A stretch of DNA of 49,917 nucleotides. It comes from a virus. Lineage: Duplodnaviria > Heunggongvirae > Uroviricota > Caudoviricetes. The DNA lies in the IMG/VR virus record IMGVR_UViG_2718218131_000006; one strand, 5' to 3'. A program made the translations under genes and the position numbers. Below, one piece after another: positions 13,424 through 33,416 of this stretch. The stretch's first letter is position 1; each line of letters starts with the position of its first letter. The notes under the pieces are model-generated. The model ran no database searches, was not told the origin of the DNA, and saw only the letters and a list, made by a program, of their open reading frames with translations.

Positions 13424-13436
13424 GTATGACCTCCGT

Positions 13437-14189: not shown

Positions 14190-14196
14190 ATCGTCC

Positions 14197-15122: not shown

Positions 15123-15137
15123 AATTTCACCCTGCGT

Positions 15138-15858: not shown

Positions 15859-15909
15859 ATCAGCCCCCTGTGAAAAAAGACACGGGGGCATTTCGCCCCC
15901 GCTCACGGA

Positions 15910-16938
15910 TTATTTCACCTGTACCACCACAAACTCATCCGGGTCCGGCAACACCATCAGCGGCGCGGACTGCGTCATGGTAAATTCACGGGCGGGATCC
16001 CCCACCGTCAGCCAGTGTTTCGGATAACGGGAAGAGGCCACCACACCTTCGGACAACGCCTGCGCATCCTGAATGGCACCGTAACAACGGATCCCATCTG
16101 CAGCAGTATTCCCCAGAACCAGCATGCCCTCCGGCAGATAACGTTTTTCGATACCGTCTTCTGCTATATAAGACGTTTTCGCCACCACAATGGCCAGATC
16201 GCCGTAATACCCCTTGAAGGACACCACTGCGCCCAGATCTTTCACTGCCGTTTCGAGTTGAGAATTTGAACCGCGACGGGTATCCAGTTTTTCGCGGAAC
16301 AGCTTAAAACCATTCAGAAGACGCCAGACGGTACCGTCCATAATGGCAATATTCACAAGACCGCTGGCCTGGTCGCAGTAGAGGTCAAGATCATGTGTAG
16401 GATCGAACGTGTCACGATCCTGTTTTGACCACTCCTTACCACTACCCTGAGTGATGTTATTCTTCGTCGACCTGCCAAAATCGACCTCAATTTTCTCGAA
16501 CTGGTCTCCTTCCATCGTATATTTGCCATACAACACAGCATTTACCGCCTGTATTTCTTCCACCTGGACAATCGCGTGCTCTTCCTGTTTGAGGTTATCG
16601 GTAATGATACGCAGACGGCGGTAAGCCGGATCGTTCAGTTGAGCCGGATCTTCACCAGGAAGGCGCTCAACCGCCTGCTGGTAATTAAATTCGTGTTTCG
16701 GCTTGACGTAGCCCGGACGTAACACGCGGGTTTCACCACCACGATGACGCAGCACTTTTCCTTCAACAACCGGGGAGACATAGGCCGCCACCGGCGTTTT
16801 TCCGGTAATTTTGTCCAGCATCACCTCTTCGGTATGGAAATTCACCGTACGGCGGAAAAACAGCTCCAGAAACAGCGCACGAAATTTCACTTTTTGTTCG
16901 GTATAACCGAGTAACTGGCGGGTCGTAAACAATCCCAT
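15910..16938 (-). CDS. E: Major capsid protein E
   Basis: 342 aa; many blocks match lambda E (RPGYVKPKHE, DPAYRRLRI, KYTMEGD, DTRRGSNS). Confidence 0.92.
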   Translation of the reverse strand: MGLFTTRQLLGYTEQKVKFRALFLELFFRRTVNFHTEEVMLDKITGKTPVAAYVSPVVEGKVLRHRGGETRVLRPGYVKPKHEFNYQQAVERLPGEDPAQLNDPAYRRLRIITDNLKQEEHAIVQVEEIQAVNAVLYGKYTMEGDQFEKIEVDFGRSTKNNITQGSGKEWSKQDRDTFDPTHDLDLYCDQASGLVNIAIMDGTVWRLLNGFKLFREKLDTRRGSNSQLETAVKDLGAVVSFKGYYGDLAIVVAKTSYIAEDGIEKRYLPEGMLVLGNTAADGIRCYGAIQDAQALSEGVVASSRYPKHWLTVGDPAREFTMTQSAPLMVLPDPDEFVVVQVK

Positions 16939-16995
16939 AAATCAGTTCCTTTCATTCAGAAATCAGTCAGGCCACCGCGGTGGCCTGATAACGTG

Positions 16996-17343
16996 TTACG
17001 GCAGCGCCGCGTGACTCAGGGCACTGCCGGCAAAGGCATTTGCCTTTTTGTGTTCATCCACACTTTCAGGCCAGCGGATTGCCTCCGTCGCAAAGGTCCC
17101 CGACTTGTAATAGGTCAGTACCGTCTCTGTGCCTTCAAGCGGCAGTACCAGTATGCCAACTGCACTACCGGCTTTCTGTCCGTCCCAGACCACCAGTTTC
17201 CCGCTGGCTTCATCCAGCATCAGGGGCGTCAGTGCCGGTGTTGCCGAGGAAATCCCGCTGCTGCCTGTGGCGGTATGAGCCGGATCATTACCGGCAAAAA
17301 TACGTACTTCCGCACGCTGTTCAGTGATGGTTTTCGTTACCAT
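16996..17343 (-). CDS. D: Head decoration protein D
   Basis: 115 aa in the lambda D position immediately upstream of E, close to lambda D length. Confidence 0.85.
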   Translation of the reverse strand: MVTKTITEQRAEVRIFAGNDPAHTATGSSGISSATPALTPLMLDEASGKLVVWDGQKAGSAVGILVLPLEGTETVLTYYKSGTFATEAIRWPESVDEHKKANAFAGSALSHAALP

Positions 17344-17379
17344 ATTGTAAAAACCTCCTGTTGATGATCAGCACTGACT

Positions 17380-18885
17380 TCATGGCATGGCCATGAGCAT
17401 TTTCACGTCCGCATCACCGTCTGCTGACGTCTGTGGCACGCCACCCTGTACCGCTGCCGGTGAATGGTTCGCCATGATGCGTTCAAACAGGGCGGTTGTG
17501 GATGCAGAGACCGGTTCTGCCTTACCTGATCCCGCAGCCAGCACAGCCCGGGCGCTCTCCACAGTCATTCCCGGGCAGGCAGCCAGTTGTTCAGCCTGCG
17601 CCTCAGCCCCTTTTGCCTCATCCAGTGCCATGATCTGATCACGGAGTGAGGGTCCGGCATCCGCCTGCGGTGAAGCAGCCAGGATCGGGCGGGCTTTTTC
17701 CACCGTCATCTCCGGCATCGCCGCCAGCGTTGCCGCCAGTTGTTCACGACCGTTCGCTTCTTCACACGCCATAATGCGATCGGCTTCACTCTGCGTGGAT
17801 GCCACCGGCTGCTGCGGTGCCGCCGCGGCCAGAATCGCCCGGGCCTGTGCAACGCTCATGCCCTGTTGTCCTGCCAGCATCGTGGCAAGCTGTTCACGTC
17901 CTTTCGCTTCCTGGCATGTCAGGATCCCCATCACTCGCTGGTTCTCCTGCGCGGCGGCTTCCGTTGCAGTTAATTGCGGCATAGTGCCTCCTCTGACATT
18001 ACTGTTCAGCGCCGTGGCCATCACACTGATGGCATCCGACGCATTGACTAATTCATCCGCCAGCCCGGCCTCAATGCCGGACTGACCTTCAAAAACGGCG
18101 GCCTCTGTTCCCGTGACGGCATCAACAGACAGACCGGTAAACATCGCCACTTTTTCGGCAAACATCCGGCGCGCCGCATCAATGCGCTGCTGCATGTCCT
18201 GGCGAACCTCTGCCGGTAAGGCTTCAAACTGATTGCCATCCACCTTGTGCGCCCCTGAGTAAATCAGCGTGATATCCACACCGGCCTGCGCCAGATGACC
18301 GGCATAGCTGACATGGCTCATCATCACGCCAATGGAGCCGATACGGGATGTCTGGGTAACCAGCCGTCGGGAGCAGGCCGACGCCAGCAGCATGGCTGCA
18401 GAACAGGCCGTGTCATTGCACAGTGCCCAGACCGGCTTCTGCTGACGGAGGCGGTAAATCATGTCAGCGCAGTCAAACGCGCCGGCGGCCTGCCCGCCCG
18501 GACTGTCAATGTCCAGCAGTATGCCCCGCACCTGGCTATCTGCCATTGCCTGCTGAAGACAGGCGACAATGCCGTCATAGCCAGTCATTCCGGAAAATGG
18601 CCGCATCCCCCCCAGCCGGTGCACCAGCGTGCCGGTCACCGGCAGTACCGCAATACCGTTCACCACCCGGTAAACACGGGCCGGTCGTTTACCTCCGGCC
18701 ATGTACTCGTCCGTTTCAGCCAGCATTCCGGGAGCATCAAGCTGTACCTGCTGTTGTGGTACCGAAAGACTTGCTGCCCCCATCTCGCGCCCGAGCGCGC
18801 AAAAGAAAACCCGCGCATAGGCGGGCTCCAGAAGCAGCGGTTCATTGAATGCTGCGGCAATAATGTGTGAAAGATTACGTCTCAC
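17380..18885 (-). CDS. C: Head maturation protease C (S49/ClpP-like), probably with nested scaffold Nu3 in its C-terminal part
   Basis: Position between B and D; Ala-rich C-terminal region with three tandem roughly 37-aa repeats. Confidence 0.8.
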   Translation of the reverse strand: MRRNLSHIIAAAFNEPLLLEPAYARVFFCALGREMGAASLSVPQQQVQLDAPGMLAETDEYMAGGKRPARVYRVVNGIAVLPVTGTLVHRLGGMRPFSGMTGYDGIVACLQQAMADSQVRGILLDIDSPGGQAAGAFDCADMIYRLRQQKPVWALCNDTACSAAMLLASACSRRLVTQTSRIGSIGVMMSHVSYAGHLAQAGVDITLIYSGAHKVDGNQFEALPAEVRQDMQQRIDAARRMFAEKVAMFTGLSVDAVTGTEAAVFEGQSGIEAGLADELVNASDAISVMATALNSNVRGGTMPQLTATEAAAQENQRVMGILTCQEAKGREQLATMLAGQQGMSVAQARAILAAAAPQQPVASTQSEADRIMACEEANGREQLAATLAAMPEMTVEKARPILAASPQADAGPSLRDQIMALDEAKGAEAQAEQLAACPGMTVESARAVLAAGSGKAEPVSASTTALFERIMANHSPAAVQGGVPQTSADGDADVKMLMAMP

Positions 18886-20467
18886 GTGGTGTTGTCTCCT
18901 CTTCCGGCCTGCGACTCTCCGCTATCTGCTGCTGATACGCCTGCGCTATCCACACCGGACGTGAGAGTCCGGCTTTTTCCCGCTCTGCAGATTCCCTGAC
19001 CTGCTGGCGGAAAATGTCCTGATAATCCTCGCCCATCAGCGCCAGCTCTTTCTCATACGTGCTCAGTCCGGCCTCAATGCGCATCACTGATTCCTGAACC
19101 TCCTTGAGCCCGTCAATGGCCATTCTTCCGGCTCCAATCCACTCAGCCCGTGACCAGGCTGATCGCGCCTGATAAAAATCAAAACGTGCCCGTGGCGGAC
19201 GAATAATCCCCCGAAGAAGTGCCTCTTCCAGCCAGCAGGAAAACATCTGCGTGGCCAGCCGGGACGCAATAAATTTTCGCCGCCCCATAAAATAGCGCCA
19301 CGACTCATTGGCGGATGCGCGGGCACTTGAATAACTGACCTTCGAGTAATCACGGGACAACTGTTCGTAGGAAACGCCAAGACCGGCGGCGATATACCGC
19401 AGCAGCGCCTGTTCAAGCGCCGAAAATCCATTGTCTGAATCCTGCGCGGTCTGAAGTTTCAGATCATCACCGGGGAAAAGGTGCGGAATTTTGACACCGC
19501 CCAGCGTCACGCTATTCGTGTCATACCAGGTGGAGAACTTATCCAGAATATTAATAAGCGGATTATCCTTCTGCCCCTGCGGCGCACCGGCGATATATTC
19601 AAAGGCCTTTTCGGTATCAAGGTCACTTTCAATCGTCGCTGCATACATCGCCTTCACTATGGCCGACTGAAGCTGTGTTGCCTGCAGGGAATCGAGCATC
19701 TTCAGCCGTTCCATTACGCTGTAAAACTGATTGGCCCCACGGGTCTGCCCGTCCTCCACCGGCTCGAAAATATGCAGCATGGCCGGACGCCCGGTGGGAA
19801 GTTCACGCGGGATCCGTTCCCATCGTCCACTCCCAGAGAACGGAAAATCATCCTCACAGATATGGTACGCAACGGCACGACCATATCGATCGACCTCCAC
19901 ACCGGCCCGCAGAAAACGGTTCCCCATACCGTGTCCTGGCGTGTCCACCCGTTTCGGACTCACGGCTTTAAAACGCGTACGAAACAGTTGCGTGCTCTCC
20001 GTATCCCAGACCGGCTGCACAAAGATTTCGCCGTTAAACGCATGAACGCCCACACCTTCACGAATAAATTCCGTAAACGTGCGTTTCTCTTCCACGTCGA
20101 TCTCGCCAGACATCCCTTCGGCGTATTCCGACCAGGCCGCCTCCACCTCATCGACAAAACTTTTTGCCGCAGTCTCCCGCATCCCCAGCCAGCGCCAGTT
20201 CGGACGGTAGCTGATCAGAAACATATGCCCGACAATATGATCCTTATGCAGGGCCACCGCATTGGCCGCTATCCCGTTATTGCGCACCAGATCATCTGCC
20301 CGGGCATTCCCCAGACGCAACGCAGGCAGCAGGGCTGCATCGGCACTCTGCGCCGGTGGCAACCACTCCGCCATTTGCCCGCCAAATCCTGCGCCGCCCC
20401 CGTTGTAGCTGAGACTCTCACGAAGCGGAACGCCGTTCACATCAATCAGGACAGGCGTTCGTTTCAT
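18875..20467 (-). CDS. B: Portal protein B
   Basis: 530 aa in lambda position between W and C. Confidence 0.88.
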   Translation of the reverse strand: MKRTPVLIDVNGVPLRESLSYNGGGAGFGGQMAEWLPPAQSADAALLPALRLGNARADDLVRNNGIAANAVALHKDHIVGHMFLISYRPNWRWLGMRETAAKSFVDEVEAAWSEYAEGMSGEIDVEEKRTFTEFIREGVGVHAFNGEIFVQPVWDTESTQLFRTRFKAVSPKRVDTPGHGMGNRFLRAGVEVDRYGRAVAYHICEDDFPFSGSGRWERIPRELPTGRPAMLHIFEPVEDGQTRGANQFYSVMERLKMLDSLQATQLQSAIVKAMYAATIESDLDTEKAFEYIAGAPQGQKDNPLINILDKFSTWYDTNSVTLGGVKIPHLFPGDDLKLQTAQDSDNGFSALEQALLRYIAAGLGVSYEQLSRDYSKVSYSSARASANESWRYFMGRRKFIASRLATQMFSCWLEEALLRGIIRPPRARFDFYQARSAWSRAEWIGAGRMAIDGLKEVQESVMRIEAGLSTYEKELALMGEDYQDIFRQQVRESAEREKAGLSRPVWIAQAYQQQIAESRRPEEETTPRET

Positions 20468-20670
20468 AACCTCACTCCCAGCGGACGACGGCGACGTCGG
20501 GTTGTCCCCAGTACCGACTCCGCATCATTGATCGCCCGGTTAAGCTCATCCAGAGAAGCCGCCGTATATTCAATTCTGCGACCATCTTTCTGGACAGACA
20601 CCACCCGTTTACCGGTTAATAAATCAAGGCGCGCCTGACGTAGCGCCTGTAGTTCAGCGACTGTAACCAT
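20464..20670 (-). CDS. W: Head-tail joining protein W
   Basis: 68 aa, same as lambda W, in the lambda W position between A and B. Confidence 0.85.
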   Translation of the reverse strand: MVTVAELQALRQARLDLLTGKRVVSVQKDGRRIEYTAASLDELNRAINDAESVLGTTRRRRRPLGVRL

Positions 20671-22582
20671 TCACTCCTCCGGACAGCTTCGCTGCCAGTT
20701 CTTTCAGGGTTGGCCGGGTCGTCTCTTCTTCCCGGGATTTTGCCAGTACAGCCAGATCAAGCTGCCAGCGTTGCACGGACACACGTAATGCCGCGTAGGC
20801 ATACACCAGGCAGTCCAGCGCTTCGTTACGCCGCTTTTTGTTATCCCACAGCAGACGCATCTTTCCTTTTTCCCACTTCTCCACAAGCTCTTCCGCGACC
20901 AGTTGCTGCGCCTCTGTCTGCGAAAAAATCTCCGGATCATCAGGAAAACGGATGGCATACGACGTGGCTTCATCCGCAGGAGTGGGATCGGCTTTCATAC
21001 GGGCATAGAGAATTTCTTTTGCGGTGTCCGTCCCCACTTCACACAGATACACGCCCCGCTGATTGCGGGTTTTCGGCATGGTGATCACCGGCTTGCCATA
21101 GACAGATGCGCCTTTTACCGGCAGCACCCGGAAAACACCGTGTTTTTTTGACCTCTGATAGACAATTTCACCATCGATCCCCCCGGTGTCCCAGCAGACA
21201 CGGGAAATGGTCATTTCGGTTCCGTCTGCATGGCAGTATTTTTTGTTGATCGCCGCATCCACACGTAACAGCGTCTCTTCCTCATCGGGACGGCCCATAA
21301 TGATGATTTTATCCACCAGAAAGGCTTCCTCTCCCGGTGCCCATCCCCAGACATACATCTCAAAACGGTTTCGCTGCGAGTCAATGCCCGCCGTCAGATA
21401 AACCACCCGGGCAGGCACCGCCGCCGTGTAACGCACCACCTTATCCATCAGTACCTGGTGATCGAGTTTTTCGCCCACGGCCTCTTCCCAGGTCTCGCCC
21501 AGCGTGGTGTTCACAAAGGTTTTCAGGCCGTTGGGATCTTTCAGTGCATCCAGCCAGTCATAGACTATCTGTATCCAGGTGGTGAACGGACTGTACGCCG
21601 TCCAGATATGGAACGTGATGGAGCGCGGCGGCGGAATTTCATCCCCCCGGGCGCTGAAAAACGTCAGACCGTCACGGGTCCACATACCCGTGTTTTCACA
21701 GATCCAGCGCCCGTTACTCTGGTCAAGCTCAGACTGATGGATCACGCAGCCATGATGTTCACAGAGGTAGAAAACGCTTTCGGGGCTGTCCTTCTCCCAT
21801 TTAAGGCCAAAAGGCGTGGATTCATCGCCAAATTTCAGATACTGCGCCTCCCCACAGTGCGGGCAGGGCACATAGAAACGCATGAAATGCGCCGACTCGT
21901 TGGCCGCTTTTTCGATCTGGCAGGTACCTTTGATTTTAGGCGTCGAGCCGCGAATGGATTTTGGCCATACAGAGCCCTCAATACGCTTATCCCCCAGCAG
22001 GGTTGGCGAGCCCTCTTTTTCGACATCCGGCTCGAACGAGGAAAGCTCGTCATAGCAGACCACGTCCACGGATTTTTCACGGTAGTTTTTGGCGGCTGCA
22101 CCGCCCAGGCACCAGAAACCGACGCCCGATGAAAAGCGTTTCAGCGTGAGAGTATTGTCACGATGTTTACGACCCAGCCATGGGGAAAGGTCTTTCAGGC
22201 ATGGCACGTTCCGAATCGTCGCCTCCACGTGAGACTTCATAAAATCTTCAGCGGCAGAATCCGTGGGCTGAAAAAGCAGACTGTTTCGGGATTTATGCTC
22301 AATAAAATACCCGACCACCCCCAGCAACATCTTTGTATAGCCAACACGGGCAGATTTAATCAGGTTAACCGTGCGAACCTGGTCGTTACCCATACAGTTC
22401 ATAATGGCGATCTGGAATGGCAGCGTTTTCCATTCTCCCTCACCATATGAAGATTCTTTAGGCAGATAATAATTTTGATCAGCCCATTCAACTGCCGTCA
22501 TTGATACAACCCTGACCAGAGGCTGCAGCGCAACCGAAACGGCAGCCATCATATTATTCAGTTGTTGCTCTGATATATTCAT
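20654..22582 (-). CDS. A: Terminase large subunit A
   Basis: Start set at MNISEQQ by alignment to the lambda A N-terminus; conserved AVEWADQNYYLPKES; ATPase and nuclease regions. Confidence 0.9.
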   Translation of the reverse strand: MNISEQQLNNMMAAVSVALQPLVRVVSMTAVEWADQNYYLPKESSYGEGEWKTLPFQIAIMNCMGNDQVRTVNLIKSARVGYTKMLLGVVGYFIEHKSRNSLLFQPTDSAAEDFMKSHVEATIRNVPCLKDLSPWLGRKHRDNTLTLKRFSSGVGFWCLGGAAAKNYREKSVDVVCYDELSSFEPDVEKEGSPTLLGDKRIEGSVWPKSIRGSTPKIKGTCQIEKAANESAHFMRFYVPCPHCGEAQYLKFGDESTPFGLKWEKDSPESVFYLCEHHGCVIHQSELDQSNGRWICENTGMWTRDGLTFFSARGDEIPPPRSITFHIWTAYSPFTTWIQIVYDWLDALKDPNGLKTFVNTTLGETWEEAVGEKLDHQVLMDKVVRYTAAVPARVVYLTAGIDSQRNRFEMYVWGWAPGEEAFLVDKIIIMGRPDEEETLLRVDAAINKKYCHADGTEMTISRVCWDTGGIDGEIVYQRSKKHGVFRVLPVKGASVYGKPVITMPKTRNQRGVYLCEVGTDTAKEILYARMKADPTPADEATSYAIRFPDDPEIFSQTEAQQLVAEELVEKWEKGKMRLLWDNKKRRNEALDCLVYAYAALRVSVQRWQLDLAVLAKSREEETTRPTLKELAAKLSGGVNGYSR

Positions 22583-23063
22583 CGAGTAAATCCGGTAATT
22601 TATCCCCTGCCCGCGCACACTGATTTGCCCCCTTCGCAATAAGGGTTTTCAGATGGTCAAGATGGCGCGGTGTTAAATCAGGAAACTGTCGCTGCATGGA
22701 TAAAGGGATGGAATCAAGCGTACTGGATAACGCCATTGCCAGCTTACTGAGGGCAAAAATACAGAACCCGGTGTCAATCAGTTTTCCTTTTGACACCTCA
22801 TTTTTTAACTGCTGTGTAACAGCCTGTTCTGCTGTCAGTTCCCATCTGGCAATAAGCAATTTCTCCTCATAGTCGTCTTCGCTATCGCCATCAGGCACAT
22901 CGTTTTTACTTCTCCTCAGATACGATATGTAAAAATCGCGCCAGGCATCCAGATCCAGTTGCCCTCGCTTATTCGATATCGGGGCACCCGGCAATTTCTG
23001 CAATCTGCGAAGCTGGCGATCGGTCAGACTTAAATGCCTGGCAACTTCAGTCTGCGTAGCCAC
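22554..23063 (-). CDS. Nu1: Terminase small subunit Nu1
   Basis: N-terminal helix-turn-helix; C-terminal half resembles lambda Nu1; immediately downstream of cos. Confidence 0.85.
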   Translation of the reverse strand: MATQTEVARHLSLTDRQLRRLQKLPGAPISNKRGQLDLDAWRDFYISYLRRSKNDVPDGDSEDDYEEKLLIARWELTAEQAVTQQLKNEVSKGKLIDTGFCIFALSKLAMALSSTLDSIPLSMQRQFPDLTPRHLDHLKTLIAKGANQCARAGDKLPDLLDEYIRATTE

Positions 23064-23104
23064 TCCTCACCTCGCAAAAACTCTCACCTCACAATCACAA
23101 CAAA

Positions 23105-23212
23105 ACCGGTCATGTCCGGTTTACATGTCTGTTTTTTGTTCATGTCCGGTTCACAGAAGACCTGTTTTTATATTTTTCATATAGTTAACTTGAAGAGAAA
23201 CCGGACATGGAT
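23105..23212. promoter_or_regulatory. cosB-like region with three copies of the motif CATGTCCGGTT (two direct, one inverted)
   Basis: Motif at 23111-23121 and 23141-23151 (+) and inverted at 23199-23209, between cosN and the Nu1 start. Confidence 0.55.
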
Positions 23213-23246
23213 CCCGGAAAATTTTCATAAATAGCGAAAACCCGCG

Positions 23247-23258
23247 AGGTCGCCGCCC
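23247..23258 (-). other. cosN cohesive-end site (lambda-type 12-nt overhang GGGCGGCGACCT)
   Basis: Window reads ...ttttcataaatagcgaaaacccgcgaggtcgccgccc, the reverse complement of the lambda genome left end as I recall it. Confidence 0.85.
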
Positions 23259-23386
23259 CGTAACCTGTCGGATCGCCGGAAAGGACCCGCAAAATGATAA
23301 TAATTATCATCTACATGTCACAACGTGCATCTACGCCATCAAACTGAACCGCCCCGGGTTTCCTGGAGAGTGTTTTATCTGTGAAC

Positions 23387-23693
23387 TCAGGCTGCCAGAT
23401 CATCGTTTCCGATGGAAGCATAATAAGCTTTTTCTGCTTCTGCCGGTGGGATATGGCCCAGCCTTTCCAGCAATCGTCGATTGTTATACCAGTCCACCCA
23501 CGTGAGTGTGGCCAGCTCCACTTCTGTCCGGTTTTTCCAGCTCTTACGGTGTATTACCTCCGCTTTGTAAAGGCCATTGATGCTCTCCGCCATCGCGTTG
23601 TCATACGAGTCACCAGTACTTCCTGTTGATGCCAGTAATCCGGCTTCCTTAAGCCGCTGTGTGTAGGCCAGCGATACATACTGAGAACCTTTA
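23387..23693 (-). pseudogene. IS629 transposase orfB, C-terminal fragment (interrupted)
   Basis: GSQYVSLAYTQRLKEAGLLASTGSTGDSYDNAMAE...WYNNRRL is the IS3-family integrase core C-terminus. Confidence 0.8.
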
Positions 23694-23830
23694 TTGCAAA
23701 ATGGCATCTGAATCGATCGCAGTTTGGCATTCGAATCGATCATGATTTGGCATCCATCTCCGATCACAGTTTGGCATCACAATCGATCACGATTTGGCAT
23801 GCTTCCGATCATTGATTGGCATCCTGCCAG
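23694..23830. repeat. Multiple terminal direct repeats of the IS21-family element (left end)
   Basis: Five copies of roughly GATCANNGTTTGGCAT at about 23-bp spacing; related copies at the right end (26250-26342). Confidence 0.75.
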
Positions 23831-23896
23831 TCACTCCGGGAATTAACTCTTTTCACCACAGTCTCCATTGCCGTGTTTAAACCAGTGGAGACGTCA

Positions 23897-25462
23897 ATGT
23901 CCAGAAAGAGAAAATCCAGGAGCACTATGGAAACCTGTTTTAAGATTCTTCAGCTCAAGTTCGACAAGAAGCTGACTAACCGTTGTATCGGACTGACGTT
24001 ACACATCAGCGCCTCAACCGTTTTTGAGGTTCTTGCCCGCTTCAAAGCCTCTTCTCTGTCATGGCCATTACCTGCTGATATATCCCATGACACGCTGGAG
24101 AAACTCATTTTTCCGCCCAAAGACACCTTTGCATCAGAGCTTGTAATGCCTGACATGTTGTACCTCGATACGGAAATGAGAAAACCAGGTGTGACGCGGC
24201 AACTGTTGTGGATGGAATACAAGGCACAGGCGGGTAACAAAGCGATGGGATACTCGCACTTCTGCCGTTGCTACCGGGAGTGGAAAAAAACGCGACGTCT
24301 CTCCATGCGCCAGGAGCATCGTGCCGGCGAAAAGCTTTTTATCGACTTCTGTGGTCCTACGGTTCCTGTTATTAATCCGGACACCGGTGAGATACGCCGC
24401 GTGGCAATCTTCGTGGCCGTAATGGGGGCGTCCAACTATACCTACGTTGAAGCGTGCGAAGGTCAGGACATGATGTCATGGTTAAATGCCCACAGCCGTT
24501 GCCTGACCTTCCTGGGCGGCGTACCGAAGCTGCTCATCCCCGATAACCTCAGAAGCGCAGTGAAAAAGGCCGATCGATATGAGCCTGTCATCAACGACAG
24601 TTATCAGGCACTGGCTGAGCACTATGGCACGGTTATCATCCCGGCCCGACCACGCAAACCTAAAGATAAACCAAAAGCAGAAAACGGCGTCCTCATCGTC
24701 GAACGATGGCTTCTTGCCCGCATCCGTAATGAAACCTTCCACACGCTCAGGGCGCTGAATGCGCGCCTTAGGGAGTTACTGACAGACATGAATAACCGGC
24801 CAATGAAGGGGTACGGCAATCAAACCCGTGCAGAACGCTTCCGCATACTGGATGCGCCAGCACTCTCTCCGCTGCCTCTGGCACCTTATGAATACACGGA
24901 ATACAAAGCTGTGAAGGTTGGCCCTGACTACCACGTTGAATATGCCCGTCACTGGTACTCCGTTCCACACGAACTGGTCGGTCAGCGTCTGTCACTGAAG
25001 GCGGGGCAGTCGGTGGTACAGCTCTGGCACAAGGGGCAGTGTGTGGCGCAACATCCGCGCAGCACACATGAATATAAACACACAACCAATCCGCTTCACA
25101 TGCCAGAGCGCCACCGGCAGCACGGGACATGGACACCGGAACGCCTGATCGAGCAGGGAAAACGTACGGGCCCGTCCACAGGCCGGGTGGTTGAATCCAT
25201 GCTGAAGGCAAAACCCCATCCGGAACTGGCTTATCGTGCAGTTCTGGGGCTGCTGGCACTTCAGAAAAAATACGGCCCGGAACGGCTGGAAAAGGCCTGT
25301 TACGTTGCCCTGCACTATAACGCCCCTGACAGACGCTTTATCGACAATCTGCTGCGTCACCATCGGGAGAACCTGGAGCTTCCATTATCCCGCCAGGGCG
25401 AACAACATCCGGCATATGCTTCAGAGCATGAAAACCTGCGTGGTCCGGGCTACTACCACTGA
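23897..25462 (+). CDS. istA: IS21-family transposase IstA
   Basis: N-terminal helix-turn-helix followed by an integrase-like catalytic core; GGAG ribosome-binding site; followed by the IstB ATPase. Confidence 0.85.
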   Translation: MSRKRKSRSTMETCFKILQLKFDKKLTNRCIGLTLHISASTVFEVLARFKASSLSWPLPADISHDTLEKLIFPPKDTFASELVMPDMLYLDTEMRKPGVTRQLLWMEYKAQAGNKAMGYSHFCRCYREWKKTRRLSMRQEHRAGEKLFIDFCGPTVPVINPDTGEIRRVAIFVAVMGASNYTYVEACEGQDMMSWLNAHSRCLTFLGGVPKLLIPDNLRSAVKKADRYEPVINDSYQALAEHYGTVIIPARPRKPKDKPKAENGVLIVERWLLARIRNETFHTLRALNARLRELLTDMNNRPMKGYGNQTRAERFRILDAPALSPLPLAPYEYTEYKAVKVGPDYHVEYARHWYSVPHELVGQRLSLKAGQSVVQLWHKGQCVAQHPRSTHEYKHTTNPLHMPERHRQHGTWTPERLIEQGKRTGPSTGRVVESMLKAKPHPELAYRAVLGLLALQKKYGPERLEKACYVALHYNAPDRRFIDNLLRHHRENLELPLSRQGEQHPAYASEHENLRGPGYYH

Positions 25463-25478
25463 CAGAAGGAACAACAGT

Positions 25479-26234
25479 ATGAGTGATAACCTGTTAAACA
25501 AACTGACCCAACTGAAACTCCCGGCGATGGCCGGGAGCCTGATACGGCAGCGGGAAACGCCTCAGACCTACGACGAACTGTCGTTCGAGGAAAGGCTGAC
25601 GCTGCTGGTTGATGACGAGCTTCTGAGCAGGGAAAACAGCCGTGTGGCACGGTTGAGAAAAAATGCCGGCCTGAAATACCAGGCAACACCGGAAGGGCTG
25701 CGCTATCCGGCCTCAAGAGGTCTGCGGGCTGAACAGATGAGAGAACTGCTGAACGGCCACTACATAACCCACAGGAAAAACCTGCTGATAACCGGTCCGA
25801 CAGGATGTGGCAAGAGCTGGATAGCCAATGCGCTGGGCGAACAGGCATGTCGACAGAAACACAGCGTCCGGTACTGTAGAACCGGGCGATTACTGGAACA
25901 ACTGGCTCAGGGACGTGTTGATGGCAGCTGGCTGAAATATCTGAAACAGTTGCAAAAAATACAGGTTCTAATCCTGGACGATCTGGGGCTGGAACAGTTA
26001 AGTAACGCCCAGTGTAATGACCTTCTGGAGCTCATAGAGGATCGTTACGGACAAAGCAGCACGATAGTGGTAAGCCAGTTCCCGGTAGATAAATGGCATG
26101 GTCTGATGGAGAACCCAACAACAGCAGATGCCATCCTGGACAGACTGGTACATAACTCACACCGGGTGGTCCTTCAGGGAGAGTCACTGAGGAAAAATCC
26201 CCCGGTAGTGGAAAGCAGCGAAAAAACGCGTTAA
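25479..26234 (+). CDS. istB: IS21-family helper ATPase IstB
   Basis: Walker A motif ITGPTGCGKSW, Walker B LILDDLG; typical IstB length. Confidence 0.88.
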   Translation: MSDNLLNKLTQLKLPAMAGSLIRQRETPQTYDELSFEERLTLLVDDELLSRENSRVARLRKNAGLKYQATPEGLRYPASRGLRAEQMRELLNGHYITHRKNLLITGPTGCGKSWIANALGEQACRQKHSVRYCRTGRLLEQLAQGRVDGSWLKYLKQLQKIQVLILDDLGLEQLSNAQCNDLLELIEDRYGQSSTIVVSQFPVDKWHGLMENPTTADAILDRLVHNSHRVVLQGESLRKNPPVVESSEKTR

Positions 26235-26341
26235 AAAGCGGTAGAAAAAGTTAAGTTCCCGGTTGATCGAATGGATGCGAATCGCTGATCGGACTTCGAT
26301 GCCAATCCGTGATCGAATAGAGCGGAATACGCACCTTTATC

Positions 26342-26923
26342 ACTGTGATGGACTGTGCCGGACGGTCGACGGGCCCATAACGCCTGCTCCAGAGCATCCA
26401 GCACGAATGTCGTTTCCATAGACGATGAGACCCGCCACCCCACGATGTATCCGGCAAACACATCAATGATGAACGCCACATAGACGCCCCCCTGCCATGT
26501 GCTGACGTAAGTAAAATCAGCCACCCACAACTGGTCAGGACGTTCTGCCACAAACTGACGGTTTACGCGGTCGCCTGCGGCAACGGCTTTCCGGCTGACG
26601 GTAGTGCGGACCTTTTTACCCCGGAGAACACCGGCAAGTCCCATAACCGCCATGAGGCGCGCCACTGTACATCTGGCTACCCTGATTCCTTCCCGTAACA
26701 ACTGACGCCAGACTTTACGCACACCGTATACCTGATGATTCCCATCGTATACGCGCAGTATCTCTTTCTTCAGCCAGTCATCGCGCTGCGCACGGGCACT
26801 GCGTTTATCAGGATGATGTCGCTGTTGCTGACAGTGGTAATACGTTGACGGGGCAATATGTAGTTCACTGCATACCGGTCCGACCCCGTACAGCTTACGC
26901 AGCTTATCCAGCAGTGGCATCAC
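26342..26923 (-). pseudogene. IS629 transposase orfB, N-terminal fragment (interrupted)
   Basis: ...DQLWVADFTYVSTWQGGVYVAFIIDVFAGYIVGW...HHSDKG, then runs into IS21 end sequence. Confidence 0.8.
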
Positions 26924-27246
26924 TTTTTCCAGAGGCGGTCGAACTCCGCCTTTGCAAAATAAGCGGAAGCCTGGCGAAGGATATCGTTACTGCGGCGCAG
27001 TTCACGATTTTCACGTTCCAGCTCTTTCAGACGCTGACGTTCAGCGGTGGTGAGCCCGCCATCACCGCCTCCGGTATCCCGCTCATGCTGGCGTACCCAG
27101 ACACGCAGAGTCTCCGGTGTACAGCCAATCTTTGGGGCAATGGAACAAATTGCCGCCCACTGTGAGTCATATTCGCCCTGACTTTCCAGAACCATACGAA
27201 TCGCCCTCTGACGGACTTCGGGGGAAAAACGAGTATTTTTAGTCAT
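26920..27246 (-). CDS. IS629 OrfA (helix-turn-helix, leucine-zipper transposase subunit)
   Basis: [57 protein letters not shown] matches my memory of IS629 OrfA. Confidence 0.85.
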
Positions 27247-27416
27247 CCTGTTTACCTCTTTCTCAGGGAGTTTAGTCTCCAGGATTCCCGGGGCGGTTCA
27301 AACCACGTCAAATAATTAATTATGACGCAGGTATCGTATTAATTGATCTGCATCAACTTAACGTAAAAACAACTTCAGACAATACAAATCAGCGACACTG
27401 AATACGGGGCAACCTC

Positions 27417-27641
27417 ATGTCAACGAAGAACAGAACCCGCAGAAAAACAACCCGCAACATCCGCTTTCCTAACCAAATGATTGAACAAATTAACATCGCT
27501 CTTGATCAGAAAGGTTCAGGTAATTTTTCAGCGTGGGTTATTGAAGCCTGCAGAAGAAGATTAATTAATGAAAAACATGCTCAATTTGTACCCAACAAAG
27601 ACAAACACGACCAGAGCACCTGTTCAGACAGGTTTACTTAA
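27417..27641 (+). CDS. Small putative ribbon-helix-helix DNA-binding protein
   Basis: 74 aa with basic N-terminus; strand-helix-helix pattern IRFPNQMIEQINIALDQKGSGNFSAWVIEACRRRL; terminator follows. Confidence 0.45.
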   Translation: MSTKNRTRRKTTRNIRFPNQMIEQINIALDQKGSGNFSAWVIEACRRRLINEKHAQFVPNKDKHDQSTCSDRFT

Positions 27642-27659
27642 ACGACTTATATATGACAC

Positions 27660-27686
27660 AAAAAGCGACCACTAAAGTCGCTTTTT
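27660..27686. terminator. Bidirectional terminator between the convergent RHH-like gene and the pch-like gene
   Basis: GCGAC-cactaaa-GTCGC hairpin flanked by an A-run and a T-run. Confidence 0.65.
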
Positions 27687-27722
27687 CTTATGGTAACAGG
27701 CAATAACGCTCTCAGATATTTT

Positions 27723-28037
27723 TTAGCATTTTTTTGACCGCGCGTTTCCGGACGTATTCTGTTCTCCTGTCCCTTTATATCGTCGGAATACCCGCCGCTC
27801 TTCAAATCCCATTCCCAACTCAGAATGTAGTCTGTTGACCGCTTGTTTTATTTCGGTCAGGTTCACCGGTGAAACCGGAGTCCGGCGCGCCTTACGCAAA
27901 CACTCTGCTCGTTTCTGTGCCGCCACTTTTCTTTTCTGGTCATCACTTAGCTGTACCATCACTTTTGCCCATCGTTCAGCTGCTCTCCGGTACAGTCCTT
28001 TTTTCTCCAGACATTCTGCCACGTGATCATGTAGCAT
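27723..28037 (-). CDS. pch: PerC-family transcriptional regulator (Pch-like, the prophage-encoded activator of LEE in EHEC)
   Basis: 104 aa starting MLHDHVAECLEKKGLYRRAAERWAKVMVQ; GLYRRAAERW is the PerC signature as I recall it; long AT-rich upstream region. Confidence 0.6.
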   Translation of the reverse strand: MLHDHVAECLEKKGLYRRAAERWAKVMVQLSDDQKRKVAAQKRAECLRKARRTPVSPVNLTEIKQAVNRLHSELGMGFEERRVFRRYKGTGEQNTSGNARSKKC

Positions 28038-28502
28038 AAGTGACCTCCGATTATCTACAGACTGCCATCCTGAATTTACCTTCCCTTAATGAAATAACAA
28101 TAAAAAACAAACCACGCAAAAACAATAAAATAACACACAAAAAAAACTAAATAATAAACAAAAATAATCACCTTATTTTATTATTTTTTGAGGGGGCAAT
28201 TACTGAACAAAAAACGCTGACTATATACTCAAAACCAAACAACTATTCTGCCAATCAGGTATCATGGCAACACACGGAATTACCGTGTTTTTGCCTTCTC
28301 TGCCCATACAATACGGGCATATACTTCATACTCTATTGTAATATTTCTATCCATGCGCCCCACTCCATTTACCTGTAAATAATATTCAAAATATTTATCA
28401 CAGAAATCGTTTTTGTCCATGAACTGAGCACACTATAAAGTCCGGAACTGACTCTTTGTTAAATTACCTTAACGTTACCAGTAACACCTTCATAACAAAA
28501 CA

Positions 28503-28970
28503 TCACGGTATACACTGGGTACGGATATATTCCTGTGCTCCTTCCAGTTGCTTCTGCATTGCCATCAGCCGTTCTCTGAGGATGAAATAATCCCGTTCAG
28601 CGGCTTCTGCCAGTCGGGGACCGGTTGCATTATCCACGCCGGAGGTGATGGGGGCTTTACGCAAGGAGCCTGGACAGTTGGCGTTGATGCGCAGGCGCTT
28701 ACGACCAGCGGCAACATCAGCACGCAGAGTTTCATTTTCAGCTCTCGCATCGGCTAATTCCCTCGAGTATCTGGCATCAAGTGCAGCGACATCACGCTGG
28801 CGTACCTGCATATCAGTAATTGTCACGTTCGCCAGCTTCAGCTCACTGGCTTTTTTATCGCGTTGCGCTTTGTAGGTAATGGCGTTATCGCGGTAATGAT
28901 TCAGCCCCAGACTAAGCACACCACAGGCTACCAGCAGGACAATAATCACCACACACAGAACACGGTTCAT
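28503..28970 (-). CDS. Rz: Rz inner-membrane spanin
   Basis: N-terminal transmembrane helix then coiled coil; follows the endolysin; contains the embedded Rz1 frame. Confidence 0.85.
28565..28750 (-). CDS. Rz1: Rz1 outer-membrane lipoprotein spanin, embedded in Rz in the +1 frame
   Basis: 61-aa ORF wholly inside Rz; lipobox LVVSAC then proline-rich sequence. Confidence 0.8.
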
Positions 28971-29121
28971 ATCCCCCTCACCCCACCAGCCATGACAAAG
29001 TTAAGACGCGCCAGGCAGTGGAAAAGCAAATAGCAACCAGCATTAGTGAAAATGAAATGCCGACGATTACACAGAGGATCTTCGCCAGCGTTATGAGCTT
29101 GTCTGACATGCTTAATCCTCT

Positions 29122-29304
29122 TCACGATTTCAACGCAATGACCAGTTTTGCCAGCCCATACAGCATCGGAGACACAGCAATACCGACCGCCACCCACTTA
29201 ATAGCAAAAGCCAGCGCTCTGCTGACGTCATCAGTTACAGGCGCTTTCAGTTCAAGGCCGTTTTTCATAGTCAATCTCAACAGAATTCGTTTATACTTTC
29301 CCAT
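29122..29304 (-). CDS. Hypothetical small membrane protein between R and Rz
   Basis: 60 aa from MGKYKRILL with AAGGGAGAA ribosome-binding site; C-terminal hydrophobic helix; a hairpin lies upstream at 29337-29372. Confidence 0.35.
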   Translation of the reverse strand: MGKYKRILLRLTMKNGLELKAPVTDDVSRALAFAIKWVAVGIAVSPMLYGLAKLVIALKS

Positions 29305-29459
29305 GTTCTCCCTTGCCTTACTCAAGGTCAGAAACACAAAACCCCGTTTGCGGCCAACAAACGGGGTTTTACTTTTATTCACTTAGTTTTTGCCAGTTCG
29401 CAGGATTTCGTGTTATCCGCCCGCGTTGGCCAACGTCATTTTTCAGCAAAATATTCTGC

Positions 29460-29993
29460 TTATCTGTCAATTCCCCAGCACGCCAGTGCACTTTCCTGGT
29501 CTCGCCGGGATACCTGACCGTAGCAATTATTTGAGCGGATACGGCAGTCTCTGCCACCGTCCTTAATCCACCAGCGAATCGCTTCGCAGGCACCTTTTCG
29601 ATCACCTGCATTAATCCGTCTGTAAAACGTAGACGGGAAACACTTACCGGGGCCAATGTTATAAGGACAAAATGACGCGATACCCGCCTTCTGGGGTTCG
29701 GTCAGCGGTACTTTAATATTGCGCTCCACCCACTCCAGCGCCTTATCACGTTCAATGGCGTTAACCTGGTCGCACTTTTCCTTCGATAACTTCATACCCG
29801 GGACGACAGGCTTACCATCCACTCGGGTGGCACCGCGGCAGATGGTCCAGATCCCCGCACCATCACGGTATGCCGTGGTGTGGTTACCTTCTTTTTCGTC
29901 AAGAAACTGGTCGAGGATTTCAGGCGCAGACGTCCCTGCACCAATCAGCGCCAGAACGGCAGCCGACAGGCCGTATCTGATTTTTGCGTTCAT
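29460..29993 (-). CDS. R: Signal-arrest-release (SAR) endolysin, T4-lysozyme-like
   Basis: N-terminal weakly hydrophobic SAR segment LSAAVLALIGAGTSAPE; lysozyme-like core in the family of phage 21 R. Confidence 0.85.
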   Translation of the reverse strand: MNAKIRYGLSAAVLALIGAGTSAPEILDQFLDEKEGNHTTAYRDGAGIWTICRGATRVDGKPVVPGMKLSKEKCDQVNAIERDKALEWVERNIKVPLTEPQKAGIASFCPYNIGPGKCFPSTFYRRINAGDRKGACEAIRWWIKDGGRDCRIRSNNCYGQVSRRDQESALACWGIDR

Positions 29994-30364
29994 GGATATT
30001 TATCAGGATTTATCGGTTTCTGAACCCTGGATATGTTAAGCATTCAGCCCGTCAGTGGTAGGACACTGGCGCTCTGGTTAAGGATTATGGGGGATGCAGG
30101 CTGGGCTACCCCATCTGAGGATTTGATATGCAAAAAGAAGTTTTTATCAATATTACAGCTGACTGCTCATCTCCTGCATCAACAGCAAAAGAAATTGAAG
30201 CTCTTAAATATATGATTACAGTAATATTTACCGTATTGGACCAGAATGAAAAAAAATGGAATCATTCATCAATTAAATGAACATGTAAATAATCCATATA
30301 TCAAAAGCAATCTGGAAATGTTGCTACCAATGAAAGATATTGGAAAACCAACTGAAACAAAAGG

Positions 30365-30679
30365 CTAACAACCCGTAATCGAGTTATCTGAACTGTTAAT
30401 TTTTATGGTATACCGCGCCTCTGAACAGGGGCGCGTTTCTGGCAACAGCTCGTCCCCTTCACATAACCCGGCAGCAACATCCAGGAAGACCTGTCTGATG
30501 CTCCTTCTGGCTGCTGCCTCATAAAACTCCAGCGCGGCACCTTCAACACGGTCCAGCGAGATGTCCAGGTCAAAAATTTCACCGTCAAAGCATTTTTTGT
30601 CCCGTAACGCTAAAGTTACCGTAACTTTATTCTCAAAATTGCGGATCCCTTTCACAATCACTTCATAGTTTTGAGTCAT
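30365..30679 (-). CDS. Hypothetical protein between holin and endolysin
   Basis: 104-aa ORF with GGGGAGAG ribosome-binding site, starting 5 nt after the holin stop. Confidence 0.55.
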   Translation of the reverse strand: MTQNYEVIVKGIRNFENKVTVTLALRDKKCFDGEIFDLDISLDRVEGAALEFYEAAARRSIRQVFLDVAAGLCEGDELLPETRPCSEARYTIKINSSDNSITGC

Positions 30680-30683
30680 TGAA

Positions 30684-30899
30684 TTACTCTCCCCGTGCAG
30701 CCTTACGCTTGTCTTCTCTGATTTTGAAGTACAGATTTGTCAGATAAGTCAGGAAGCCTAGGACCAGACTCCCCAGTACACCAATCGCAGCCCACTGTGA
30801 CGGACTGACCTGATCAAGCCACTGTAAAAACCAGTAGCCAGCACTGCCTGCGGAGGTGCCATAGGCGACACCCGTTGTTAACTTATCCATGGATTTCAT
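30684..30899 (-). CDS. S: Class II pinholin (S21-like) with dual-start motif Met1-Lys-Ser-Met4
   Basis: 71 aa [45 protein letters not shown]...[13 protein letters not shown] matches my memory of phage 21 S; GAGGTGGGG ribosome-binding site. Confidence 0.85.
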
Positions 30900-30966
30900 A
30901 ACCCCACCTCGCAGATGCGGGTGCTGTGTAATGGAAATAAAAAGGCCACCTGACGTGGCCACCAGA

Positions 30967-32019
30967 TTATTTCCCCACCAGCTCGTTTATCTCTTTCACT
31001 GTCTGATTAAACCGCTCTGACTCAAGCTCAACACCTAAGGCCCGACGCCCCAGCGCCATTGCTGCTTTTATTGTGGAACCGGATCCCATAAAAAAATCAG
31101 CAACCAGATCACCTGGTCGACTACTGGCATTGATTATTTGCCTGAGCATATCCGCCGGTTTCTCACACGGATGTTTCCCCGGGTAGAACTGAACGGGTTT
31201 ATGCATCCAGACATCGGCATAAGGCACGGAGACTGATACGGAGAAATAGCGCCGGAGAGATTTAAACTCATCCAGCAATTCAGAATATTTACGATTCAGT
31301 GAATCATAAGATGCCACCAGCTGGTGGTGTGGTTGTTCCAGTTGTTGTTCCTGAAACTTCTCTGCCGCTATACGGGAAAACAGTGCCTGTAACTTCCGAT
31401 AGTCATCCTCATTCGGCAACTGCCACTGACTGGCACCAAACCAGTGGGAAACCATATTTTTCTTACCTGTGGCTTCGGCAATCTGTTTTGCCGTTATACC
31501 CAGTTCGGCACGAGCATCCCTGAAATACGATATCAGCGGTGCCATTATATGCTGTTTGAGTTCCCTTTCTTTTGCCGCATAGCCGTCATTTTTTGGCTGA
31601 TATGGCCCCTGATAATGTTCAGCAAACAGAATGCGCTCTGTTGCCGGGAAATACGCCCGCAGGCTTTCCTTGTTGCACCCGTTCCAGCGTCCGGACGGCT
31701 TCGCCCAGATAATGTGGTTCAGCACATTAAAGCGCTCACGCATCATGATTTCGGTGTCAGCTGCCAGGCGATGACCACAGAACAGGTAAAGACTTCCGGC
31801 AGGCTTCAGTACCCGCCAGAACTGCGCCAGACACTGCTCCAGCCATTTCAGATAATCATCGTCCCCCTTCCACTGGTTATCCCAGCCCTCGGGCTTCACT
31901 TTAAAGTATGGCGGGTCTGTGACTATCAGATCGACAGAGTTTTCCGGTAAGGTCTGGATAAATTCCAGGCAATCAGCGTTGATTAACTCACAACTGGATA
32001 TTTTTACAGTATTAGCCAT
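30967..32019 (-). CDS. DNA N6-adenine methyltransferase
   Basis: 350 aa with catalytic motif IV DPPYF (LIVTDPPYF). Confidence 0.85.
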
Positions 32020-32172
32020 AGATCAATAAGCACTTCTCTGATAGGCTCATACCGCTTTTGCGCAAAGCAGATGGGCCTGAGGTTTGCTTGTGACCCCAAC
32101 GCATGAGCAGATGGCTGGCAGGTGCCGCTAACACCCACCAGCCGCCCATTACCACAAATTAAAAAGCCTTCA

Positions 32173-32367
32173 CTACGGAAGGCGTCTGTAACAACCGAAC
32201 TGATAATCTGCCAAGCCCGCCATAACAAGCTGGGTCAGTATTAACTGGCAGCGTTCGCGTGAAAGGTAAGTATTCTGCGCAATTTCCCCGACGGTCGCCG
32301 GTTCGGTGACGCTTAATTCATTAAACACAACTCTGGCAGTTTCAGTCATATCCTGCTGTTTTAGCAT
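32173..32367 (-). CDS. Hypothetical small protein (possible winged-helix)
   Basis: 64 aa with AAGGGAAAAG ribosome-binding site; lies between tR' and the methyltransferase. Confidence 0.45.
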   Translation of the reverse strand: MLKQQDMTETARVVFNELSVTEPATVGEIAQNTYLSRERCQLILTQLVMAGLADYQFGCYRRLP

Positions 32368-32489
32368 GTCTTTTCCCTTTTCTGGTTAACGTGACATACC
32401 AATAACTCTTGTCGAAAAAGCCAGCAAGCTGAAAGACCTGTATTCGCAACCACCAGCGCGTTTAACGTTCTGTGCTGTTTTTCGGACAC

Positions 32490-32515
32490 AAAAAAACCCG
32501 CCTGGTGGCGGGCTG
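32490..32515 (-). terminator. tR'-like rho-independent terminator downstream of the late promoter
   Basis: Minus strand: GCCCGCC-acca-GGCGGGT then TTTTTTT, about 80 nt downstream of the Q-like stop. Confidence 0.75.
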
Positions 32516-32594
32516 CAAAAATTCTTCTAACGTCAGGCATAAAACGCCCATCGTTAGGGCGAATTTACCACAGATTCCGGAAAAATCAACCTTG

Positions 32595-33416
32595 TTATCT
32601 GGTTACCTTTTTTAACTGTCGCTCCGCCCATGCCTCTTCAATGTCAAACCGAACCACCAGCTTGTCATAGAATTGCTTAACAGTTTTTTCCCATGACGCG
32701 CGTGTTATCTGATTTGTGACCTCGCATATGGCATTAAATGCCTCCGTTGATGGCAGTCTTTCATAGCCACGACCGCCACAACGCTGGCAGTCCCTGATAA
32801 CAGGCATACCACGTTTTACCGACTCTTCACGATGAATGGCGACACCACGCCCACGGCAATCCTTACAGGCGGTGGAGACCTCACCCTTTCCCCCGCATTC
32901 AGGACAGGCAACTTTTACCACTTCCCGGACTTTTTTCCATTCTTCCCAGTAAGACGGATACACACCCTTCGTACACTTTGCCCATACTGGCGGCTTGCCA
33001 TCCGGATACTGAACCTTGTTTGTAAAAACTACGCTTTCAATAAATTTTTCCCCATGGCAACAAGGGCACTGCTTTTTACTCGCTGCGCTGCGGGCATAAT
33101 CCTCAAAAGCATACGAAGCCATAATGCGCATCACTGCCGGTTTTATTTCTGCCGGAAGTTTTCTTAACGCCGCCACGCGATCGCACTGACTTAATGCATA
33201 ATCTGCCAGTAATTCTGTTGCCCGCGCCCTGTCATTCATACTAATGCCCATTTTCCCCAGGAACGCAGAAAATCCAATCTCAGCACGGTTTTGTGTCATA
33301 CCCTGCGCAGCCATCACATCAGTGATACTCAGCGTATCTTTTGACGTCGAGACGGATGCATCAGTCAGGCCAGGCGATTTTGGGGAGTAGTATTTCGGTA
33401 AATCTTCCAGTTTCAT
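32595..33416 (-). CDS. Putative late-gene antiterminator (Q-like), zinc-ribbon rich
   Basis: 273 aa with four CxxC pairs; placed immediately upstream of a promoter-plus-terminator and the lysis genes. Confidence 0.55.
   Translation of the reverse strand: MKLEDLPKYYSPKSPGLTDASVSTSKDTLSITDVMAAQGMTQNRAEIGFSAFLGKMGISMNDRARATELLADYALSQCDRVAALRKLPAEIKPAVMRIMASYAFEDYARSAASKKQCPCCHGEKFIESVVFTNKVQYPDGKPPVWAKCTKGVYPSYWEEWKKVREVVKVACPECGGKGEVSTACKDCRGRGVAIHREESVKRGMPVIRDCQRCGGRGYERLPSTEAFNAICEVTNQITRASWEKTVKQFYDKLVVRFDIEEAWAERQLKKVTR

Follow-up and report, generated by a model that had tools for sequence, protein, structure and literature searches.

The stretch analysed here, referred to as the window, is the full 49,917 nucleotides (nt) of the tailed-phage (Caudoviricetes) record IMGVR_UViG_2718218131_000006, which carries a lambda-like Escherichia coli prophage. 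Between its lysis genes and its head genes, beside the cohesive-end site (cos), lie two insertion sequences (ISs), one lodged within the other. The outer is an IS629/IS1203-type element of the IS3 family, and it is interrupted by ISSso4, an element of the IS21 family. The components of this nested insertion, in window positions, are as follows.

23342..23344, no strand: AAC target-site duplication of the IS629-type element, cos-side copy; read directly, with a single AAC at the empty site
23345..27300, minus strand: interrupted IS629/IS1203-type IS3-family element, 1,310 bp less the inner insertion
23345..23369, no strand: terminal inverted repeat at the orfB end of the IS629-type element, 25 nt, 92% complementary to 27276-27300
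23387..23694, minus strand: 3' part of IS629 orfB, rve_3 / rve_2; a partial 'integrase core domain-containing protein' according to the Prokaryotic Genome Annotation Pipeline (PGAP)
23688..23694, no strand: CCTTTAT target-site duplication of ISSso4, left copy; read directly
23695..26333, plus strand: complete ISSso4, 2,639 bp with TG...CA ends; delimited by four independent copies that share its ends and length and by the match to plasmid pCT
23714..23824, plus strand: five repeats of ~19-23 bp (CGATCNNNGATTTGGCAT) at the left end of ISSso4, found by repeat search; inverted copies at the right end, 26298-26316
23927..25462, plus strand: istA transposase, 511 amino acids (aa), rve and Mu-transpos_C_2; WP_023181050.1, identical in other copies
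25479..26234, plus strand: istB helper ATPase, 251 aa, IstB_IS21 at 204 bits; WP_001282653.1
26334..26340, no strand: CCTTTAT target-site duplication of ISSso4, right copy; read directly
26341..26923, minus strand: 5' part of IS629 orfB, HTH_21 and the start of the rve catalytic core, by domain match
26849..26965, minus strand: ALIL pseudoknot, which signals the programmed -1 frameshift in IS3-family elements; full-length match to Rfam RF01497 (116 bits, E = 1.8e-30)
26920..27246, minus strand: IS629 orfA, 108 aa, HTH_Tnp_1; open reading frame and domain match
27276..27300, no strand: terminal inverted repeat at the orfA end of the IS629-type element, partner of 23345-23369
27301..27303, no strand: AAC target-site duplication of the IS629-type element, lysis-side copy; read directly, with a single AAC at the empty site

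The outer element has the organization of IS629/IS1203 (IS3 family, IS51 group), which is found in enterohaemorrhagic E. coli (EHEC) and Shigella: a length of 1,310 bp, imperfect inverted repeats of ~25 bp with TG...CA ends, a 3-bp target duplication, and an orfA encoding a helix-turn-helix protein followed, through a -1 frameshift at an ALIL pseudoknot, by an orfB encoding a DDE (rve) catalytic core. Its inverted repeats are complementary at 23 of 25 bases, one end reading TGAACCGCCCCGGGTTTCCTGGAGA and the other being the imperfect complement. The AAC that the earlier note had recognized at both ends is a real duplication, because 719 of the 5,426 complete E. coli genomes that made up the comparison set match a synthetic empty site in which AAC occurs once (coverage at least 80%; identity 100% in three of them). 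When ISSso4 and one copy of its own duplication (23695-26340) are excised in silico, exactly 1,310 bp remain, with orfA and orfB both intact. This reconstituted element agrees at 1310/1310 positions with the uninterrupted copies that occupy this site in the potC prophage (prophage B) of strain Z1323CEC0005 and in EC-107, and PGAP marks a 'programmed frameshift' on an intact copy identical to it.

Identity to copies annotated as IS629 in phage BP-4795 is 95.2-96.0% over all 1,310 bp, and identity to the IS3-family copies of ECO2947 and of O157:H7, the latter labelled IS1203 family, is 94.6-95.0%. The name IS629 given in the earlier note therefore seems reasonable, and 'IS629-group isoform' would be safer, 95-96% being borderline for an isoform. 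Lambdoid prophages are the typical residence of this group, as here; the window copy differs in being only 95-96% identical to the BP-4795 IS629 and the O157:H7 IS1203-labelled copies and in having been inactivated by the nested insertion. BP-4795 was considered as a precedent for IS629 within a late operon and is a weak one only, its two copies lying beyond the tail-fibre genes, among effector genes.

The inner element can be assigned with equal precision. It has intact istA and istB, TG...CA termini with repeated sub-terminal motifs, a duplication within the range of 4-8 bp, and near-identity to a named element: it matches the sole IS21-family element of plasmid pCT, listed as ISSso4 (PMC6361801), at 99.7% over 2,639 bp, with seven mismatches. 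The two copies share an identical IstB (WP_001282653.1), labelled 'ISSso4 family' by PGAP, as well as their TG...CA ends, their sub-terminal repeats and a duplication of 5-7 bp. Apart from the seven mismatches and an unusual target in the window, the catalytic core of another IS, nothing material separates them. A length of exactly 2,639 bp and the same termini recur in four independent copies (one in a porin gene, one in a permease gene, one on a colicin plasmid and one on a further plasmid) and in the copy on pCT. The sub-terminal repeats are presumed, from what is known of the IS21 family, to be multiple transposase-binding sites. The breakpoint in orfB falls in the codons for ...HHSDKG..., so that orfB is split as the earlier note had proposed, by an IS21-family element of close to the 2.65 kb given there. 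The same note had allowed a duplication of 7 or 8 bp; the 7-bp reading stands and the 8-bp reading is ruled out, the last base of the element being A in all six copies. Duplications in the five other copies measure 5, 6, 6, 7 and 7 bp. The six targets (CCTTTAT, CTTTTAT, TTTATAG, TCTTA, TCTGTT and AAGTAT, all 5-7 bp) are T-rich, which hints at a loose preference of ISSso4 for T-rich sites.

The order of the two events can be read from other genomes. In addition to the empty site, the outer element alone is present at this position: the exact IS629-to-ylcI junction was recovered in one aligned piece from at least 11 genomes, which among the matches listed are all chicken isolates (EC-107, of serotype O80:H26, PK8241 and nine Z1323CEC strains), and 19 genomes match the cos-side IS629 junction with a coverage of at least 80%. 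The record spans of the IS629-only genomes fall short of the query by 2,646 bp, exactly the length of ISSso4 plus its 7-bp duplication. The nested junction, ISSso4 within IS629, occurs as a single aligned piece in three genomes only, Z1323CEC0005, 0006 and 0013. Since the empty, IS629-only and nested states are all present in public E. coli genomes, IS629 inserted first and ISSso4 second. An assembly artefact is ruled out by the identical junctions in three independent complete genomes. Matches in O157:H7, O26 and other strains were rejected as same-site insertions; in these the IS3-family element lies inside perC (O157:H7 Show KS 470-1, locus 2697-3910), between the lysozyme and Rz genes (ECO2947, locus 3815-5028), or at other offsets in the lysis-to-cos interval (O26 and O157).

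The arrangement is very probably the product of two successive ordinary transpositions into a permissive intergenic spot of the prophage, by which cos and the phage genes were spared and for which genome length is the sole plausible cost. In the first step, an IS629/IS1203-type element would have inserted between cos and a ylcI/ynfO-like gene, at the equivalent of lambda 48417-48419, duplicating AAC. In the second, a complete ISSso4 would have entered the ...HSDKG... codons of orfB and duplicated CCTTTAT. This splits the DDE catalytic core and leaves the IS629 copy non-autonomous with both of its terminal repeats retained, while istA and istB of the newcomer are intact.

The surroundings of the insertion bear on what it could do to the phage. 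The late region, on the minus strand, passes from Q through holin, lysozyme, Rz and perC to the insertion, cos and Nu1 (23063-22554), and the relevant features are listed below.

32595-33416, minus strand: Q antiterminator, intact (PF03589, 182 bits)
29460-29993, minus strand: lysozyme, late gene
28503-28970, minus strand: Rz, late gene
27723-28037, minus strand: perC, late gene
27417..27641, plus strand: YlcI/YnfO (DUF3950) gene, the nearest on the lysis side, undisrupted; domain match and annotation
23282..23288, minus strand: cosQ heptamer GGGTCCT, intact; placed by alignment to the lambda right end, at lambda-equivalent spacing
23247..23258, minus strand: cosN, 12-nt cohesive end, which reads GGGCGGCGACCT on the minus strand and is the same as lambda bp 1-12
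23100..23215, minus strand: cosB-equivalent region, diverged from lambda cosB, with repeated ACCGGACATG-type motifs; predicted function
22554..23063, minus strand: terminase small subunit (Nu1-type), first head-side gene past cos; homologous to lambda Nu1 in the C-terminal half only

The added DNA amounts to 3,959 bp (1,310 + 3 + 2,639 + 7) between Rz and Nu1, in keeping with the nearly 4 kb between lysis and head genes that had been noticed earlier, and the structural genes, which had been taken to be intact, are indeed all full length. No phage coding sequence is interrupted by the nested elements, the empty site being annotated as intergenic. The minus-strand sequence across the cohesive end is ...GGGTCCTTTCCGGCGATCCGACAGGTTACG followed by GGGCGGCGACCT.... 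From there the near end of IS629 is 86 bp away on the lysis-gene side (about 90 bp had been estimated), and this interval aligns to the lambda right end free of gaps. The AAC/GTT duplication falls at the equivalent of lambda 48417-48419.

It was on this proximity, with the insertion placed near the expected cosQ, that the earlier note had based its concern for packaging, and one alternative extends it: the 4-kb insertion would disable the prophage by upsetting cosQ-dependent termination of packaging, by terminating the late transcript ahead of the head genes, or both, and would leave it non-inducible. The insertion does lie within the late unit, between Rz and Nu1 and within 86 bp of cosN. The cosQ heptamer, however, is unchanged and 56 bp from the end of IS629. 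Counted from the lambda end it occupies 48473-48479, which we take to be the published cosQ coordinates of Wieczorek and Feiss. cosQ has been described as a highly conserved 7-bp site (PMC4669245, Feiss and colleagues). In addition, a 238-bp lambda plasmid insert, 48446-182, has been described as including cosQ, cosN and cosB (PMC4856287, Feiss and colleagues), and the insertion lies 27 bp beyond the equivalent of this segment, the whole of which is on the undisturbed side. The packaging half of this alternative thus finds no support at cosQ.

Comparison with lambda cos reveals conservation on one side of the site and divergence on the other. cosN and I2 match lambda bp 1-49 exactly, cosQ retains both its heptamer and its spacing, and among the 57 bp that precede the cohesive end there are four differences, none of them in cosQ. 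In contrast, the cosB of the window and the N-terminal, DNA-binding half of its Nu1 are unrelated to those of lambda, which points to a packaging specificity distinct from that of lambda, of the Sp4/Sp14 type. In place of the lambda R sites there are three ACCGGACATG / CATGTCCGGT motifs in mixed orientation, a set that would fit a different DNA-binding specificity of Nu1. The same Nu1 protein is found in O157:H7 prophages. Both cosB and Nu1 are on the far side of cosN from the insertion and are untouched. The packaging signals would be expected to function, because the insertion leaves cosQ, cosN, I2 and cosB together on its undisturbed side and breaks into no coding sequence of the phage.

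The second half of the same alternative concerns late transcription. The late transcript has 3.96 kb of extra DNA to cross, 2.6 kb of it antisense to istAB, and four weak terminator-like sites (hairpin plus T-run) lie on the late strand inside ISSso4. The foreign DNA had been thought to bring its own terminators; however, enrichment of terminator-like hairpins was not found, the region 22500-29000 (6.5 kb) containing 10 consensus sites against 7.1 +/- 2.6 in shuffles, and the gene for the Q antiterminator is intact. In lambdoid phages, the polymerase that transcribes the late genes has been modified by Q and is not stopped by terminators, and such a polymerase would cross the added 3.96 kb regardless of them. 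A long, mostly antisense or non-coding stretch at this point is moreover normal, because in lambda itself the late transcript crosses ~2.2 kb of such DNA at the same position, between Rz and nu1, where bor and lambdap78 are encoded on the opposite strand.

There is also a natural precedent amongst the Sakai prophages. In Sp5, an IS lies upstream of the lysis genes with no gene hit, and a derivative of this prophage still transfers to K-12 (PMC2669165). Like the window prophage, Sp5 and Sp4 (the latter with ISEc8 in nu1) are lambdoid prophages of the EHEC type that have an IS in or near their late or packaging region. They differ in that the window site is between Rz and cos, that the insertion is a nested one of 3.96 kb, and that the terminase gene is spared, unlike nu1 of Sp4; and whereas transfer is on record for Sp5, the window prophage is known here from sequence alone. 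The IS3-family elements that other lineages carry elsewhere in the lysis-to-cos interval, which has been hit repeatedly, argue in the same direction. Given Q antitermination and these precedents, a strong polar effect on the late genes is unlikely, and disablement of the prophage through cosQ or through termination of the late transcript is very unlikely as a whole.

The preferred reading, of two transpositions into a permissive spot, leaves genome length as the point at which the insertion could matter. The serU prophage (prophage A) of Z1323CEC0005, the nearest sequenced relative of the window prophage and a carrier of the same nested insertion, measures 53,421 bp between its serU-derived attachment (att) repeats, and 49,462 bp without the insertions. 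For the window prophage, whose exact ends lie outside the window, a length of ~51.6 kb is estimated (49,917 bp, plus ~1.5 kb to a serU-type att, plus up to ~0.2 kb beyond int). These lengths, 51.6-53.4 kb, correspond to ~106-110% of lambda. The lambda head packages ~78-105% of 48.5 kb, as is familiar from the work of Feiss and colleagues and from lambda-vector practice; against this range, the genome is at or above the lambda ceiling. All head genes are of full length and arranged as in lambda, and the major capsid protein is homologous to gpE along its entire length (61% identical, 342 vs 341 aa).

An alternative built on these figures holds that the insertion matters through length only, the 3,959 bp making the genome too long for a lambda-type T=7 head, with few or unstable particles but with cos and expression unimpaired. 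The lengths of the two prophages and the gpE homology favour it. Set against these are that the capacity figure belongs to lambda rather than to this capsid, that 106-110% is borderline, and that lambda tolerates modest oversize with a reduced yield rather than none. We regard it as possible but doubtful. If the insertion harms anything, it is probably the yield or stability of particles, through oversize, and not cos recognition or transcription; the added 3,959 bp could lower the yield of stable particles. The impairment of packaging or late expression that had been suggested earlier thus falls with respect to cosQ and terminators and survives only as a possibility by way of length, a route which had not been invoked.

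Three points weigh against the view that the insertion is harmless to all but length. The size ceiling is that of lambda, and this capsid may have another. The exact-site IS629 junction is confined, among the matches listed, to chicken isolates, and this does not imply that an actively propagating phage tolerates it. Finally, the DNA-binding half of Nu1 and cosB differ from those of lambda, so that cos requirements outside the 238-bp segment may apply here.

A further possibility is that the prophage, if it is locked in, is so for reasons of ancestry and not on account of the ISs. From position 1 to ~30049, the espJ and tccP side, the window follows the serU prophage of Z1323CEC0005, while 26333-49917 follows that strain's potC prophage with 99.7% identity, 26333-33400 being 100% identical. 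The window is thus a hybrid, in which the tail, head, cos and nested ISs are serU-type and the early region, Q, int and xis are potC-type, with a crossover somewhere in 26334-30049. In Z1323CEC0005 the two prophages are in opposite orientation and their lysis-to-IS629 blocks are essentially identical. A join between the ISSso4 end and a potC-type early region was found in none of the complete E. coli genomes of the comparison set. This suggests that the window may be the product of inter-prophage recombination, possibly of a large inversion, with possibly mismatched att ends. An inversion between two prophages in the source strain would leave the att ends unmatched, and excision would then fail independently of the ISs.

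According to this explanation, Int-mediated excision of a recombinant of two resident prophages fails at mismatched att ends. The way in which the window tracks first one prophage and then the other, their opposite orientation, and the lack of the join among the complete genomes are in its favour; on the other hand, the source strain might have matching att sites through phage-phage recombination before integration, and Int is intact. It is on balance unlikely. Within the window, int (372 aa; potC-type, 48799-49917), Q and all structural genes are full length. The integrase of the serU prophage is annotated as frameshifted in Z1323CEC0005 and 0006 (locus 5540-6590 and 5601-6651, respectively), and the S49 head protease is frameshifted by annotation in Z1323CEC0005 only (locus 21128-22632), the protease of the window (17380-18885) being full length.

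The potC prophage of Z1323CEC0005 carries a second, intact IS629 copy (locus 1992-3301) at the same position relative to cosQ and cosN, next to a different terminase small subunit and cosB; its homology to the window ends at 23214. This looks like the spread of an IS-bearing block by inter-prophage recombination and not like a second transposition. The structural genes also contain a patch of apparent exchange: the ~280 differences between the window and the serU prophage of Z1323CEC0005 all fall in the tail-to-head block at 13500-21500, a recombination patch, and 1-13500 and 21500-30000 are identical.

It is conceivable, if highly improbable, that the non-coding stretch from the lysis genes to cos is a recurrent landing zone for IS3-family elements in prophages of the EHEC and enteropathogenic E. 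coli (EPEC) type, and that stacked insertions there ground prophages carrying TccP-like effectors by oversize. If true, this would be a size-based form of prophage domestication in which the genes are undamaged and the prophage could be rescued by loss of an IS or by recombination with a sibling prophage.

Three accessory loci elsewhere in the window were recorded. At 1-873, on the plus strand, a 290-aa open reading frame with five EspF-type proline-rich repeats (PF04806, 444 bits; period of the DNA repeat 141 bp) encodes a TccP/EspF-like effector. At 6923-7450, also on the plus strand and so opposite to the tail genes amid which it lies, a sodC gene (Cu/Zn superoxide dismutase) is situated between J-like and I-like genes in the manner of a moron. 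In the early/nin region, at ~35669-36350 on the plus, again opposite, strand, a gene for a RelE/ParE-type toxin is followed by one for a DNA-binding regulator, likely the antitoxin, as annotated in the potC prophage, to which this part of the window is 99.7% identical.

Both elements are catalogued, and nesting of ISs within EHEC/EPEC-type prophages is familiar in general, so that the finding is one of ordinary mobile-element litter. In practice it is of use for marking the lineage to which a group of chicken E. coli isolates belongs. It also counsels caution in calls of prophage completeness, 4 kb having been added here without breaking a gene or cos. Since neither is broken, any defect of such a prophage would have to be argued from genome length or recombinant history, and not from cosQ or terminators.

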